A stretch of DNA of 51,929 nt from a virus (lineage: Duplodnaviria; Heunggongvirae; Uroviricota; Caudoviricetes), in the IMG/VR virus record IMGVR_UViG_2541047794_000002, positions 1 to 51,929 of that record; one strand, written 5' to 3'. The position numbers and the translations under genes were made by a program. Below are positions 4,540-37,401 of the stretch, piece by piece. How positions within the stretch are numbered: position 1 is the first letter of the stretch; every line of letters starts with the position of its first letter. The notes beneath the pieces were generated by a model. The model searched no databases. It was not told where the DNA came from and was given only the letters and a program-made list of their open reading frames with translations.

Positions 4540-5403
4540 TCATTTCGCATCTACAATAAATAACCTGTTTATCTGGCCTTTTTTAACAGTAGCCTTTGCG
4601 GTTATAGTGAATACTGCAGATGGATCACCTTTGGTTGATATATATGCACTAAGAGCTCTAATATACGGGTTATTCTTCTTTCCTGCAGCTGGATCGCTAA
4701 TTTCAGCAGTGATTCTCTTTTTTGAGTCATCACCATCTAAAATTATTTTAGCTGTCATATTTTGTGCATCAAATTCTGTAAGAAAAGCACGATACTCACG
4801 AAGACCGAGAACTTCATCATCATCAAGCCTATCAATTTCAGCTTTATCTCTCTCGTTAACTTTTAGAAGGCAGCCGTCAACATTTGTTGCAACACTTATC
4901 TGATCGCAAGTATTACCAATAGGTGATACTGCCTGCCTTACAGAGGGGCGAAGCTCTACAGCCATTCGGTCAATCAAAGAGATCAACTTATCAATGGTTC
5001 CAGCATCCTTGTTTCCTAGTGCCTCTATGGCCTTTTCAAGTGACTGCTGCAAAGCTTTCATTTCATCTTTCTTGTTAGAATTTCTCGCAAAAATATATTG
5101 TAGTATTGCGCCAAGTATAGTTGCGGCGATCCCCGAGAACAACTGGTTCTGAGTGGCGAAGTTAAGAACTGCTTCAAGAGTAAAGCAGTTAGCTTTTGCT
5201 TCGCGTGCGTAAACCTTAACTTCCTGATAATTAATGTATTTACTATATTTTTGTGTAACAGAGAAAGAAGCTGCTGTTGAGAGAACTTTAGAAAAACCCT
5301 TTAGGGATTCTCCTAGGCAGTTCAAATCTATTTCATGATTTAAAGCATCTTTTCCGTCATACCTAAGAGAGATTTTTATATCCTGTAAAGCGTCACAATC
5401 CAT
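4540..5403 (-). CDS. Unknown 287-aa protein in the immunity region directly downstream of cI (rexAB position); candidate lysogen-expressed exclusion/defence gene
   Basis: Long AT-rich ORF, co-directional with cI, followed by its own terminator. One hydrophobic segment ([18 protein letters not shown]). No recognised domain. Confidence 0.6.
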
Positions 5404-18759: not shown

Positions 18760-18990
18760 ATAAACCAGAACGCCTGCGGGTCCTTTCCGGCGATCCGACA
18801 GGTTACGGGGCGGCGACCTCGCGGGTTTTCGCTATTTATGAAAATTTTCCGGTTTAAGGCGTTTCCGTTCTTCTTCGCCGTAACTTAATGTTTTTATTTA
18901 AAACACTCCCTGAAAAGAAAGGAAACGACAGGTGCTGAAAACGGGCTTTTTGGCCTCTGTCGTTTCCTTTCTCTGTTTTTGTCCGTGGAA
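18760..18990. other. Prophage cos site (cosQ-cosN-cosB); cosN GGGCGGCGACCT at 18809..18820
   Basis: Near-identical to the lambda genome left end (GGGCGGCGACCTCGCGGGTTTTCGCTATTTATGAAAATTTTCCGG...), about 188 bp upstream of nu1. Confidence 0.85.
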
Positions 18991-18996
18991 TGAACA

Positions 18997-19516
18997 ATGG
19001 AAGTCAACAAAAAGCAGCTGGCTGACATTTTCGGCGCGAGTATCCGTACTATTCAGAACTGGCAGGAGCAGGGAATGCCCGTTCTGCGAGGCGGTGGGAA
19101 GGGTAATGAGGTGCTTTATGACTCTGCCGACGTCATAAAATGGTATGCCGAAAGGGATGCTGAAATTGAGAACGAAAAGCTGCGCCGGGAGGTTGAAGAA
19201 CTGCGACAGGCCAGCGAGACAGATCTCCAGCCAGGGACTATTGAGTACGAACGCCATCGACTTACGCGTGCGCAGGCCGACGCACAGGAGCTGAAAAATG
19301 CCAGAGACTCCGCTGAAGTGGTGGAAACCGCATTCTGTACTTTCGTGCTGTCGCGGATCGCAGGTGAAATTGCCAGTATTCTCGACGGGATCCCCCTGTC
19401 GGTGCAGCGGCGTTTTCCGGAACTGGAAAACCGACATGTTGATTTCCTGAAACGGGATATCATCAAAGCCATGAACAAAGCAGCCGCGCTGGATGAACTG
19501 ATACCGGGGTTGCTGA

Positions 19517-19542
<26 letters not shown>
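18997..19542 (+). CDS. nu1: Terminase small subunit Nu1
   Basis: 181 aa, near-identical to lambda Nu1. Confidence 0.95.
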
Positions 19543-23223
<3,681 letters not shown>

Positions 23224-33560: not shown

Positions 33561-33902
33561 ATGGCTACTCATTACACTGAACTCATGGCTGGCACTGAAG
33601 CACTGGTTACTACGTTGGGGATATTTTCAGCTAATAAAGGGGTAATTCCTGCATTTACGCCACTGATGCAAGAAGATGCAACTGGTGCACTGGTGGTATG
33701 GGATGGAACGAGCGCAGGCAAAGCTGTTTATGTTTCCGCTGTACAAATCGATACAGCGACAAAAACGCAGGCTCAGGTTTATAAAACCGGCGTCTTAAAT
33801 GTTGATGCTCTGAACTGGCCTGAGTCTGTAACACAACTATCAGCAAAAGTTGCTGCGTTTGTTGGCTCAGGTATTTCTGTTCAGCCGCTGGCACGTGTGT
33901 GA
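33561..33902 (+). CDS. Decoration protein homolog (lambda gpD-like)
   Basis: 113 aa, similar length and motifs to gpD (LVVWDGTSAGKAV...YKTGVLNVDALNWPE), directly after the capsid gene as D-E are paired in lambda. Confidence 0.7.
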   Translation: MATHYTELMAGTEALVTTLGIFSANKGVIPAFTPLMQEDATGALVVWDGTSAGKAVYVSAVQIDTATKTQAQVYKTGVLNVDALNWPESVTQLSAKVAAFVGSGISVQPLARV

Positions 33903-33911
33903 GGTACGAGA

Positions 33912-34256
33912 ATGATTGAAAGAGATAGTCAGCTACGAGAGCTATTAGATATCGATGACAAAATGCGCTTAAGCGAGCGTCTTGTCGATATGAATCAGGT
34001 GATGGAACTTACAACCCTGAGTCGCCGTACACTGCTAAACCTTGAGGCTCGTGGAGAGTTCCCTGAGCGTGTGCAGGTTACGGAAGGGCGTAAGGCTTGG
34101 TATTTAAGCGAGGTTGTTGAGTGGATTAACAATATCCCGCGAGCATCAAACTATTGCCTCGTACCCACACCGGAAAAACCTGATGCGGCGTTATGCCTCA
34201 AGATTGAACGCGCCAGGCGTAATGCCCTGAAAGGGCGCAATAAGTTGATTGGTTGA
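33912..34256 (+). CDS. Second AlpA/excisionase-family HTH protein
   Basis: 114 aa; TTLSRRTLLNLEARGEFPERVQVTEGRKAWYLSEVVEWI fits the AlpA/Xis-type HTH. Confidence 0.6.
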   Translation: MIERDSQLRELLDIDDKMRLSERLVDMNQVMELTTLSRRTLLNLEARGEFPERVQVTEGRKAWYLSEVVEWINNIPRASNYCLVPTPEKPDAALCLKIERARRNALKGRNKLIG

Positions 34257-34261
34257 TGAAA

Positions 34262-34345
34262 TTAGGGCCCGCTCTGGCTGGCGGGTCCTTTCCGGCAATC
34301 CGGCAGACTACGGGGCGGAAGGCGCGCGGGTTTTCGCTATTTATG
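34262..34345. other. Element cos site, lambda-like (cosQ-cosN-cosB); cosN-equivalent GGGCGGAAGGCG at about 34313..34324
   Basis: GGGTCCTTTCCGGCAATCCGGCAGACTACGGGGCGGAAGGCGCGCGGGTTTTCGCTATTTATGA closely parallels the prophage cos at 18780..18850, with differences inside cosN. Confidence 0.75.
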
Positions 34346-34472
34346 AGCATTTTAAGGGGACTGGTGGTGGTTTTGTTGTTCGCTATATCTGTATGAATAA
34401 TAAGAGAAAAATACAATCAATACACCAACCTGAAACAGTAATTAAGTTGTGGTATCAATGAAATTACACCTG

Positions 34473-35000
34473 ATGAACAAAAAAAACATGGCAAAAAGTT
34501 GCCGTGTAAGCGCCACTGCGTTCGATAAGTGGGGAGTGATTCCCGTCGAGCGTAAGGGCCGTGAGGCGTTCTATGATGTTGCCAGTGTAATAGATAATCG
34601 GGTTAACAATGCAATCAGCCAGATTACAAACGAAACGGGCGATATTGATGACGATGAACTTTTACGCGTCAGGATCAGATTACTGACAGCACAGGCAGAG
34701 GCGCAGGAGCTTAAAAACGAGCGCGAACGCGGCGACGTTATTGATACAGAGTTTTGTATGTATGTTCTTTCCAAACTGGCGAGTCAGATTTCATCTATCA
34801 TGGACAGCCTGCCGCTTACCATGCAAAGGCGCTTCCCACAGATGACTCCGGCTATGCTGGATGGACTTAAAAAGGAAGTGGCTAAAGCCTGTAATGCCAG
34901 TGCCGGCGTTGCTGACAACCTCCCACAGATACTGGCTGATTATCTGATGGAAAGTACAGGAAACGTACCGGATAAGTTGCAGCTGAATAAGGATAAGTAA
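34473..35000 (+). CDS. Terminase small subunit homolog (Nu1 family) of the element
   Basis: From MNKKNMAKSCRVS...; central/C-terminal region aligns with Nu1 (ELKNERERGDVIDTEFCMYVLSKLASQISSIMDSLPLTMQRRFPQM vs ELKNARDSAEVVETAFCTFVLSRIAGEIASILDGIPLSVQRRFPEL). Confidence 0.8.
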   Translation: MNKKNMAKSCRVSATAFDKWGVIPVERKGREAFYDVASVIDNRVNNAISQITNETGDIDDDELLRVRIRLLTAQAEAQELKNERERGDVIDTEFCMYVLSKLASQISSIMDSLPLTMQRRFPQMTPAMLDGLKKEVAKACNASAGVADNLPQILADYLMESTGNVPDKLQLNKDK

Positions 35001-35011
35001 CGTAGTACGCT

Positions 35012-35287
35012 ATGACTGAATCCGAACTACTGAAAGTAATCTGCCATGCTGGTGGAGTCAGCCACCAGCATGACGAACAGGCCACGCAGCCGGGCAGTGT
35101 CACCGCTGAAAATTACGCTCGTGTGGTTGCTGAGGTTATGTGGCGTGACGGTATAGAACTGAACGGACAGGATTGCTTAGTCATCCGCACCAAAGTGCTG
35201 GCTATACTGGCAGCTAGGCGGAGGCAGGGACAACGCCAGAACGTTGCATCGTACCAGTGGAAGAAGCCTGACAGACTGCGGCGATAA
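35012..35287 (+). CDS. Hypothetical protein
   Basis: 91-aa ORF downstream of terS. Confidence 0.35.
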   Translation: MTESELLKVICHAGGVSHQHDEQATQPGSVTAENYARVVAEVMWRDGIELNGQDCLVIRTKVLAILAARRRQGQRQNVASYQWKKPDRLRR

Positions 35288-35689
35288 CTCTTTGATTTTC
35301 TCGACGGCCCCAAAATGGGCCTTACCATAGCCAGCTAATAAATGAGCAAGCCTCAAAAGTGAGGTTTGTGGCCGTTTGGCCTATTCATATGCTAACTCGT
35401 TGATATTCCTGACGACGCAAATTTACGCCTTGTGGCTGGTAGTCGAATTGCAAATTTGCAACTCGACTATGAAACTACCTGTAGTTTGGGTAGTAAAAGC
35501 AACACACTGATTTTGGGGCTTCTTCGCGATACCTAATATTATGGTATCGGTGGAAGAGATATCGTTTCTCATAGGTTAGCACCGAGGGCGGAGTTCCGCC
35601 CTCATCGAAAAATTGCTTACGAGTCGTCAAAATAAATTAATCGACTGAGTATAATGATTAACTAATTGCTCGTGTTACTTCATTATACG

Positions 35690-36451
35690 TTATTTCCCAT
35701 CTTTAAGGTTTAACCAAGTGTTAATTAAAAAAAGAGCCATTGAGCCTGATAAATTTACTGCAAGTTCGGCATGCCTTGGGGATGGCTTAATTGATGAGCT
35801 GTTCGTTCCATGTGCATCACCGAGTTTATTACGAAGAGTACCTAACCCATTTACAACTGCAGAACAACCGCCGAGAATTTGTTTGAAGATATTTTCAGTA
35901 TGTTGGTCGGCAGATAGGTTAAGTTCTTTTGAAAGAGTTTTATAAAGCTCTGACATTTCAATATTTTTATTATTATACTGAATGCCCATATCATCAAGAA
36001 TGTGTTTGCAAACTGTTTCAAGAAGTGTTCTTGCGGAGGTTATCGCACCATCCGGATCTGTATGGCGCCGTTCAAGTGCTTTTATCCAAACGGCGTGGAC
36101 TCCATCCTCGTTAAACTTTCTTAATACATCAGATATGTCTTCATCCGCTGGAGCTTTATTTTTCCCTTCTAGATAGTCCAGCATCGGCTGAAATGCCTTA
36201 TAAATCAAATCTCTCCGGGGGGCATACTTTTCAGTCTTTTTTATAAATCCCCAAAATTCTTTTAGTGAGCGATTAGTTCTCACAAACTCTGGTAATAGCT
36301 GATGTAAAGGAGGATTTTGTAAGAAATATGTTCTTAGAAGCAAATAATCATTATTAGCTTCATCCTGGGCTCCTGTAGCTCTTGCAATTAGTATGTTTTG
36401 AAGCGCTACTGCGCGCTCTAGGTCATTTTGAAGGGTATCTATAATATTCAT
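35690..36451 (-). CDS. Predicted abortive-infection-type protein with C-terminal HEPN-like R-x6-H motif (Abi_C/AbiJ-like); candidate anti-phage cargo
   Basis: 253 aa, AT-rich, opposite strand, at the right end of the element. C-terminal LRNKLGDAHG contains an R-x6-H motif as in HEPN RNase domains. Confidence 0.65.
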   Translation of the reverse strand: MNIIDTLQNDLERAVALQNILIARATGAQDEANNDYLLLRTYFLQNPPLHQLLPEFVRTNRSLKEFWGFIKKTEKYAPRRDLIYKAFQPMLDYLEGKNKAPADEDISDVLRKFNEDGVHAVWIKALERRHTDPDGAITSARTLLETVCKHILDDMGIQYNNKNIEMSELYKTLSKELNLSADQHTENIFKQILGGCSAVVNGLGTLRNKLGDAHGTNSSSIKPSPRHAELAVNLSGSMALFLINTWLNLKDGK

Positions 36452-36610
36452 AACAAATCTTTATTCACTTCATTTGTGGGTTGATAATTGAATGGTTTGT
36501 ACATTGATTTCTGTGTATTGCAGTGTGTATTGCAACATAGCCATTCAGGTAGAGATTATGCTCTATTTTTCCTCTTATATCATTCACATACTTACACCAT
36601 TGACTCATGT

Positions 36611-36620
36611 AGCCGAAGCA
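36611..36620. repeat. Right copy of the 10-bp direct repeat AGCCGAAGCA (att core, right junction)
   Basis: Identical to 25173..25182; followed by E sequence resuming in frame (HEVNPQMTL...). Confidence 0.75.
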
Positions 36621-37401
36621 TGAGGTGAATCCGCAGATGACCCTGCGTCGCCTGCCGGATGAAGATCCGCAGAATCTGGCGGACCCGGCTTACCGCCGCC
36701 GTCGCATCATCATGCAGAACATGCGTGACGAAGAGCTGGCCATTGCCCAGGTCGAAGAGATGCAGGCAGTTTCTGCCGTGCTTAAGGGCAAATACACCAT
36801 GACCGGTGAAGCCTTTGATCCGGTTGAGGTGGATATGGGGCGCAGTGCGGCAAACAACATCACACAGTCCGGTGGCACGGAGTGGAGCAAGCGCGACAAG
36901 TCCACGTATGACCCGACCGACGATATCGAAGCCTACGCGCTGAACGCCAGCGGCGTGGTGAATATCATCGTGTTTGATCCGAAAGGATGGGCGCTGTTCC
37001 GTTCCTTCAAGGCCGTCAAGGATAAGCTGGATACCCGTCGCGGCTCTCATTCCGAGCTGGAGACAGCGGTAAAAGACCTGGGCAAAGCGGTGTCTTATAA
37101 GGGAATGTATGGCGATGTGGCCATCGTCGTGTATTCCGGACAGTACGTGGAAAACGGCGTCAAAAAGAACTTCCTGCCGGACAACACGGTGGTGCTGGGG
37201 AACACTCAGGCACGCGGTCTGCGTACCTATGGCTGTATTCAGGATGCGGACGCACAGCGCGAAGGCATTAACGCCTCTGCCCGTTACCCGAAAAACTGGG
37301 TGACTACCGGCGATCCGGCGCGTGAGTTCACCATGATTCAGTCAGCACCGCTGATGCTGCTGGCTGACCCTGATGAATTCGTGTCCGTACAACTGGCGTA
37401 A
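36613..37401 (+). pseudogene. E: Major capsid protein E, 3' fragment (no start codon; separated from the 5' fragment by the element)
   Basis: PKHEVNPQMTLRRLPDEDPQNLADPAYRRRRIIMQNMRDEELAIAQ... to the end matches lambda gpE residues about 80-341; an in-frame TAG lies immediately upstream. Confidence 0.85.

Follow-up and report, generated by a model that had tools for sequence, protein, structure and literature searches.

A satellite with its own cos site and small terminase

The window analysed here, a stretch of 51,929 nucleotides of the IMG/VR virus record IMGVR_UViG_2541047794_000002, holds a lambda-like prophage (the helper) whose major capsid gene E is interrupted by an 11.4-kb satellite (25183..36610, + strand) of the 11capE type of helper-embedded phage-inducible chromosomal islands (HE-PICIs). 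This satellite carries a cohesive-end site (cos) and, next to it, a gene for a Nu1-family small terminase (TerS; 34458..35000, + strand, 180 aa). With a rough probability of 0.55, we consider that the two form the satellite's private packaging-specificity module, in which the satellite TerS reads its own cosB and the large terminase of the helper (TerL, gpA) is recruited directly. The helper gpA (19517..21442, + strand, 641 aa) is the sole large terminase in the window: tblastn with gpA gave matches only at 19517-21439, with no second copy in the window, and the annotated elements of relatives likewise have no terL, in agreement with an earlier note, made from the sequence alone, that the element lacks one. 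Because the satellite has its own cos and small terminase and no large terminase, the DNA-cutting enzyme is most likely borrowed from the helper. The packaging-redirection scheme of that note keeps its core (own cos, own Nu1-family TerS, no terL) and gains comparative support, whereas three of its particulars, a conserved R3 sequence, a conserved C-terminal half and the difference inside cosN, have to be revised or toned down.

In the proposed mechanism, induction of the helper would lead the satellite to excise from gene E. The satellite would share with lambda-like helpers those parts of cos that are read by the large terminase, namely cosQ, the cosN flanks and the nicking positions, and would keep cosB private, with an N15-class R sequence at bp 51-68 (numbered from the first base of the overhang) matched by an N15-class winged-helix DNA-binding domain (DBD) in TerS. 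Satellite TerS would bind this cosB, its C-terminal region would recruit helper gpA, and gpA would nick the satellite cosN, with satellite concatemers then packaged in helper-built heads, four 11.4-kb units amounting to ~46 kb. Helper Nu1 would be unable to read the satellite cosB, leaving the site exclusive to the satellite; satellite TerS probably also competes with Nu1 for gpA and may in this way interfere with the helper.

Shared and private parts of the satellite cos

A lambda-type cos lies at 34283-34346, in register with the prophage cos, which bears out the earlier report of a lambda-like site in the element. Its cosQ-like heptamer GGGTCCT (34283..34289, + strand) stands 30 bp before the overhang, with the sequence and spacing of its helper counterpart (18778-18784), and this block was invariant across all aligned phage and satellite cos sites. 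The 12-nt cohesive end of cosN, an GGGCGGAAGGCG allele (34313..34324, + strand), is in register with the helper overhang at 18808-18819; its left flank is identical to that of the helper at 28/32 positions and its right flank (bp 13-34; 34325..34346, + strand) at 22/22. The heptamer at -30, the 12-nt cosN and the conserved flanks are those of lambda-type cosQ and cosN and delimit a predicted nicking site. In the helper, cos extends over 18778..18990 (+ strand), with lambda R3 at 18857-18872 and cosB reaching up to the Nu1 start at 18997.

Only ~66 bp around cosQ-cosN of the satellite resemble the helper: similarity ends at bp 34, and bp 66-145 match at 31/80 positions. At the position of lambda R3 (bp 50-65, taken from PMC9026076) no more than 8/16 bases match. 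The earlier claim that cosQ-like and cosB R3-like sequences are both conserved holds for cosQ, identical and identically spaced, and fails for R3. Here the satellite instead has GGTGGTGGTTTTGTTGTT (34363..34380, + strand; bp 51-68), which occurs once in the window and which we propose as the R3 of the satellite cosB. It is an N15-class motif, resembling the R3 core GGTTGTTGT of N15 and of the N15-like prophage L005: N15 has GGTTGTTGTTT at bp 50-60, within its mapped R3 (bp 48-60), and L005 has GGTTGTTGT in an R3 / inverted R2 / R1 arrangement. Two further candidates are weak. A possible inverted R2-like element, ACACCAACC (34422..34430, - strand), aligns with the inverted R2 of L005 and is kept in E. 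coli satellites but is not evident in the Enterobacter relatives, and a possible R1-like element, GTTGTGGTAT (34446..34455, + strand), lies just before the start codon and aligns with the L005 R1 at 5206-5223. The R3 equivalent is well supported, and the satellite cosB may have an N15-like architecture with a single R. A redirection scheme needs just such an exchange of the helper's R3, here for an R sequence of the N15 class.

In the RppA-type cosB (L006:2559-2630), ACCACCACC at bp 55-63 is the reverse complement of GGTGGTGGT (bp 51-59; window 34363-34371). A scan for sigma-70 promoters and terminators around the satellite cos found none on the + strand, which fits transcription reading through from late-zone genes upstream. 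A search for a second cos within the element also returned none. In chromosomal PICIs that have TerS or RppA, a second, inverted cos lies just downstream of that gene (L002:9910(-), L006:3309(-), L135:20911(-) and L133:20959(-)). The cosB of this second site matches a phage cosB class of our IMG/VR survey in 3/4 cases, each time a different class; in the remaining one, that of L133, the overhang (GGGCGGGAGCAT) is unusual and cosB is unclassified. The private cos is the only one in the helper-embedded copies (window, L001, L003 and L130-132).

A Nu1-family small terminase with an N15-class DNA-binding domain

Translation of the satellite terS from ATG 34458, in preference to GTG 34449, gives the 180 aa found in all homologues. 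The open reading frame (ORF) is intact and its homology to Nu1 is evident on formal comparison, so that the Nu1-family small terminase reported beside cos is confirmed and is not a pseudogene. The protein matches PF07471 with 87.4 bits (cut-off 30) over residues 35-151 and phrog_57 over residues 2-174 (E 9e-53); BLASTP aligns it with helper Nu1 (18997..19542, + strand, 181 aa; PF07471 333 bits) at 36% identity (E 8e-34), and the PGAP annotation is already terminase small subunit. Genes of the Nu1 family are placed between cos and terL; the satellite gene has cos directly upstream but no terL after it, which is a satellite-specific departure from the family arrangement.

Identity to helper Nu1 is unevenly distributed. 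It is highest in the central region (54%, residues 73-124); the DBD (residues 1-50) reaches 38%, the final 43 aligned residues 33% and the linker 9%. The earlier description of a conserved C-terminal half and a diverged N-terminal part is only roughly right, good conservation being confined to the central region. The DBD itself is 59% identical to that of N15 gp1 and 55-57% identical to those of N15-like prophage TerS proteins (L005/L096), and by its sequence belongs to the N15 class. At position 20, in the recognition helix and a proposed specificity residue, satellites have T and N15-class phages Q, a difference that tracks the change between GGTGGTGGT and GGTTGTTGT.

An AlphaFold2 model (pLDDT 72) shows a winged helix-turn-helix followed by three long helices. 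The DBD, with pLDDT ~80, is modelled as strand 5-7, helices 8-14 and 19-23, strands 31-33 and 36-40, and helix 41-56; the central helices 65-90 and 97-125 form a predicted Nu1-type self-association region, and the C-terminal region consists of helix 131-167 and a tail. A sequence search of the PDB with satellite TerS gave no match, the Nu1 DBD and RppC included.

Pairing of cosB with TerS and selection on the proposed module

IMG/VR was scanned with a degenerate cosN pattern, and 128 cos sites were classified, including fetched loci and the window. All sites with a GGTGGTGGTTTTGTT-type cosB (14/14) precede this TerS (82-100% identity); each has a satellite capsid gene upstream (14/14), and no TerL is present wherever enough sequence is available. 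GGTGGTGGTTTTGTTGTT is kept in all 14 of these satellite sites, in one of them as GGTGGTGGTTTTGTTTTT. Lambda-type cosB pairs with Nu1 wherever enough sequence is available, with a single exception, the terS-less satellite L004. Members of the satellite TerS family with 77-99% identity are restricted to E. coli and Shigella. Its next relatives, at 58-61% identity, are found in Enterobacter and Citrobacter, again in capE HE-PICIs, so that the nearest relatives outside E. coli are satellites as well. Despite diverged flanks, GGTGGTGGT begins at bp 51 in these relatives too, and such a cross-genus footprint, kept between proteins of only 58-61% identity, supports a private module in which TerS reads the adjacent cosB.

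Interference with helper packaging is common among satellites, and nicking by TerL is not highly sequence specific (PMC9026076). Satellite TerS might on these grounds mainly titrate gpA or poison Nu1 so as to lower the yield of the helper, the satellite cos being cut without its sequence-specific help. We regard this as quite improbable: it leaves unexplained the strict pairing, the conservation across genera of a correctly spaced private R sequence and the very low dN/dS of the DBD, and cleavage of lambda cos is poor and inaccurate without a cognate cosB (PMC9026076).

The satellite TerS gene is under strong purifying selection, with dN/dS of 0.09-0.18 over its whole length; the values for the DBD are 0.02-0.05 and those for the C-terminus 0.14-0.27. 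The ORF is counted as intact in 763/5426 complete E. coli genomes (~14%), the criterion being coverage of at least 80% of a query of cos plus terS. Among sequenced phages no TerS is more than 47% identical to that of the satellite, the best being N15 gp1 at 47%. Recent capture from a sequenced phage is ruled out, as 0/153 matching phage records reach 60% identity.

These figures bear on the notion that the locus is a relic, a cos-Nu1 fragment taken from lambdoid phage late genes and now without function. Capture of helper late genes by HE-PICIs does occur. In L004, a capE HE-PICI without terS, cosB is of the lambda type including the R3 stretch, and a 64-aa ORF starting MEVNKDQLADI (L004:6263-6457) is a remnant of the N-terminus of helper Nu1; its cos region was therefore captured from a lambda-type helper. 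For the satellite TerS, an origin as such a remnant is strongly disfavoured by the reading frame kept intact across E. coli, by its dN/dS, and by the distance to phage TerS proteins together with nearest non-E. coli relatives that are satellites. EcCICFT073 has RppA and a third cosB type at a chromosomal locus shared with an O157:H7 PICI that carries this TerS. Taken with L004 and the TerS-bearing PICIs, this indicates that related satellites use three options at one locus, namely a copy of a phage cosB, Rpp or a full TerS.

Proposed recruitment of the helper large terminase

The extreme C-terminus of Nu1 is thought to carry gpA-binding specificity. Satellite TerS retains under selection the full Nu1 C-terminal region, which is absent from Rpp proteins and whose retention supports direct recruitment of gpA; it also has the family motif phi-P-x-phi-phi-x-[DE]-Y-phi, its LPQILADYL paralleling lambda IPGLLSEYI. 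In line with a borrowed TerL, three TerS-bearing HE-PICIs all reside in helpers with near-identical lambda-type Nu1 and gpA.

Several observations weigh on the other side. The low identity of the last 43 aligned residues to helper Nu1 (33%) makes direct recruitment plausible and no more; over the same region lambda and N15, which share packaging specificity (PMC9026076), are 81% identical, and lambda and a 21-like TerS 23%. Among the sampled phages the C-terminus closest to that of the satellite is not lambda's but that of L051, from another TerS class, at 51%. The 54% identity of the central domain is family-wide and not helper-specific, since this region is 46-62% identical to every sampled Nu1 class. 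Two C-terminal alleles of satellite TerS occur within one and the same helper type (n=3), so that no covariation of C-terminus and TerL is visible. On the DNA-binding side, a consensus for integration host factor was looked for inside the satellite cosB and none was found, and Foldseek against the PDB gave no significant match, the top hits being RacA and GlnR (E 0.13-0.5), DNA-bound regulators with MerR-type winged-helix folds. A mosaic TerS with a helper-specific C-terminus, considered as a further candidate, finds no support in the identities, which are 33% to lambda and reach 51% at most, with another class.

The same comparisons suit an adaptor role of the kind known for Rpp, in which satellite TerS would bind the private cosB, make no productive contact with gpA itself and co-assemble with helper Nu1 through the central region, the C-terminus of Nu1 bringing gpA; mixed oligomers of the two proteins would in addition impair reading of the helper cos. 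Against the helper, conservation is best in the central domain and far lower in the C-terminal 43 residues; RppA and RppC, which function only when complexed with helper TerS as the source of the TerL-binding domain, provide a precedent; and this TerS is also found in satellites that are chromosomal PICIs, which may meet helpers of several terminase classes. We nevertheless hold the adaptor only as a tentative alternative. Unlike Rpp, satellite TerS has kept its C-terminal region, family motif included, under purifying selection (omega 0.14-0.27), and it has no sequence similarity to RppA. Where the lambda DBD has the dimer-interface patch I11-F12-G13, the satellite protein has S-C-R, and this replacement makes an Rpp-style DBD heterodimer unlikely.

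The Rpp family comprises proteins of 135-153 aa that are related to RppA/B/C, consist of a winged helix-turn-helix and a dimerisation domain and have no TerL-binding C-terminus, and satellite TerS falls outside it. BLASTP of satellite TerS against RppA (L006:2660-3091) found no detectable similarity (E 6.3), and RppA matches phrog_57 at residues 7-47 only. That satellite TerS is a homologue or precursor of Rpp is ruled out by this result and by the DBDs, that of RppA resembling the lambda class (E 2e-6) and that of satellite TerS being of the N15 class.

Overhang alleles

The satellite overhang GGGCGGAAGGCG and the helper overhang GGGCGGCGACCT are identical at 7/12 positions and differ at 5/12. 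The difference inside cosN reported earlier is therefore real; it is not, however, specific to the element, as the same allele is present in the lambda-like phages L030, L031 and L105, which rules out a cosN peculiar to the satellite. L030 and L031 have lambda cosB and encode Nu1 and gpA that are 99-100% and 98.8-99.2% identical, respectively, to those of the window helper, so gpA of the helper type naturally coexists with a GGGCGGAAGGCG cosN.

Five overhang alleles were seen among lambdoid phages and satellites, GGGCGGCGACCT, GGGCGGAAGGCG, GGGCGTCAGGCG, GGGCGGCGACCG and GGGCGTCGACCT, in a set drawn from L030, L031, L088 and L080 (IMG/VR) together with L001 and L004; GGGCGTCGACCT comes from L080, an N15-like phage. 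All alleles agree at positions 1-5 and 11. The allele moves independently of cosB and TerS type: L001 has a TerS identical to that of the window and the overhang GGGCGTCAGGCG, which is also that of the terS-less L004. The combination found in the window is rare, the best match to its 105 bp from cosQ to R3 in complete E. coli genomes being 96%; its overhang, cosB and TerS recur together in one IMG/VR contig (L076).

In the unexcised composite, the cos sites at 18808 and 34313 are co-oriented and 15.5 kb apart, with non-complementary overhangs, and for this reason a chromosome packaged between the helper and satellite sites could not circularise by annealing. An unlikely reading makes more of this property. 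In it, satellite TerS would be independent of helper TerS, with a degenerate C-terminal helix driving several lambdoid TerL classes, and the polymorphic overhang would be an end-compatibility label. Non-complementary GGGCGGAAGGCG/GGGCGGCGACCT ends would block circularisation of cos-to-cos hybrids from the unexcised or mixed concatemer and so isolate satellite from helper packaging units, and the overhang allele that the satellite has in common with other lambda-like phages would be the trace either of a recent stay in another helper or of diversifying selection acting on the cohesive ends.

Layout of the helper and the satellite

The lambda-like late region of the prophage occupies 18.8-25.2 kb and 36.6-51.9 kb of the window, in the order cos, Nu1, A, portal, protease, D, the split E, and then FI through J. 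An uninterrupted E gene of a relative (L003:13341-14366) maps to 24938-25182 (nt 1-245) and 36611-37401 (nt 236-1026). Gene E is accordingly split at nt 236-245 (codons 79-82), with a 10-bp overlap, AGCCGAAGCA, at both junctions: the attL core (25173..25182, + strand), within E, and the identical 10-bp attR core (36611..36620, + strand).

The satellite genes follow the order int, primase, ssb, E-like capsid, D-like decoration, AlpA-like, cos, terS, a 91-aa ORF and an Abi_C cargo gene. Pfam matches identify a tyrosine-type integrase, a D5-type primase and AlpA. The genes are co-oriented with the late operon, except for the Abi_C gene on the opposite strand, and the element belongs to the E:Phage_cap_E:80 group of HE-PICIs; the annotated relatives L001, L003 and L004 have the same organisation. 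The AlpA-family helix-turn-helix gene (33912..34256, + strand; PF05930, phrog_2790) lies directly upstream of cos, as it does in all relatives. The conserved 91-aa ORF (35012..35287, + strand; phrog_1561, E 9e-46) has homologues in L001, L002, L003 and L006. This ORF, of 91-93 aa, comes after the packaging-specificity gene, be it terS or rppA (window 35012-35287; L006:3374-3655; L002:9975-10256; L003:9773-10054), and may be part of the packaging module.

The slot between the terS region and attR holds defence-like cargo that differs between copies and looks like a variable defence hot spot: Abi_C in the window (35690-36451, - strand), HEPN and DUF262 in L004:6521-8237, and FRG and DUF3892 in Enterobacter relatives (L130:5559-6916). 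Near int, L001 additionally encodes a TIR protein (L001:5291-6166). The element that interrupts helper E also has genes for an E-like capsid protein (346 aa) and a D-like decoration protein (113 aa) of its own (window 32511-33902); candidate roles are redirection of capsid size, a backup copy or interference. Its ssb (window 31840-32246) seems frameshifted, with residues 1-39 in the frame of 31840-31956 and the remainder at 31950-32243, whereas relatives have a single 140-aa ORF; the window copy is either decaying or affected by a sequencing error. In a 304-aa ORF (window 27729-28643), the last 50 residues match PHROG phage transcriptional repressor families (E 1e-28) and the rest is without match, and the product may be a domain-swapped regulator of the 'Bro zone'.

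Relation to known systems

The element type is already known, the 11capE type of HE-PICI having been published (Tommasini, Mageeney & Williams 2023, PMC10111431), and a possible terS is a general feature of PICIs stated in the literature. The published cos mechanism is that of Rpp, which is unrelated in sequence to satellite TerS. A search of the literature available for searching found no paper describing or testing a Nu1-family TerS with its own cosB in a cos-type PICI, and the supplements of the HE-PICI paper (PMC10111431) have no Nu1 entry. On the strength of sequence comparison, a Nu1-family TerS with its own cosB is a widespread variant of known satellite packaging tricks. The locus gives a natural means of testing two questions that were put by Murialdo and Feiss (PMC9026076), namely whether the TerL-binding C-terminus is the only contribution of helper TerS in the Rpp system and what determines Nu1-gpA and Nu1-cosB specificity. 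Tools for lambda-based packaging and for PICI-based delivery could also draw on it for an orthogonal cos/TerS pair that is already at hand.

The closest described element is 11capE of E. coli NRG857c (PMC10111431), which has the same site (a 10-bp core at ~codon 80 of E), orientation and size of ~11 kb, the same integrase/AlpA/primase backbone, its own E-like capsid gene and the same cos position. It is described without terS and with 258 bp at 90% identity to the helper cos, a state seen here in L004, in contrast to the full Nu1-family terS and private cosB of the window element.

EcCICFT073 with its Rpp system (Fillol-Salom et al. 2019, PMC6739421; Murialdo & Feiss 2022, PMC9026076) is likewise a cos-type Gram-negative PICI. 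Its late zone has the same order of capsid, decoration, cos, packaging-specificity gene and a ~92-aa ORF; cosQ and cosN are common with the helper, cosB is private and of a single-R type, a winged helix-turn-helix protein is encoded just downstream of cos, and the presumed aim, redirection of the helper terminase, is the same. RppA and RppC differ in having 144-153 aa and no TerL-binding C-terminus, and act solely as heterocomplexes with helper TerS (PMC6739421, PMC9026076). Satellite TerS has 180 aa with the central and C-terminal Nu1 regions and an N15-class DBD, whereas the RppA DBD resembles the lambda class.

The closest phage relatives are N15 gp1 with cos-N15 and the TerS of the N15-like prophage L005, at 47% identity overall and 59% in the DBD. 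They share a G/T-rich R3 (GGTTGTTGT versus satellite GGTGGTGGT) at the same distance from cosN, and a compact cosB. In N15-class phages, by contrast, terL directly follows, and the C-terminus of N15 is 81% identical to that of lambda Nu1. To N15 and lambda alike, the satellite C-terminus, which ends in a 12-residue tail, shows 33-35% identity. In the pac-type Staphylococcus aureus pathogenicity islands (SaPIs), as far as they are described through PMC6739421 (Ubeda 2007; Ram 2012), a satellite-encoded small terminase, TerS(S), also pairs with the helper large terminase and reads a satellite-specific site. Those islands are described there as packaging by the headful (pac) route, with a TerS from an unrelated family and with Ppi as a separate protein, whereas the window satellite is of the cos type, its TerS is of the Nu1 family, and no gene resembling that for Ppi was identified in it.

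For cos-type Gram-negative satellites, two solutions have been described: copying the helper cos, or a truncated adaptor, Rpp, that needs helper TerS. The present locus points to a third, in which the same genomic position is taken by a Nu1-family TerS of full length that has a cosB of its own; this solution is common in E. coli and is also found in Enterobacter and Citrobacter. Its value lies mainly in being the natural counterpart of Rpp and in giving access to the specificity of Nu1 for cosB and for gpA.

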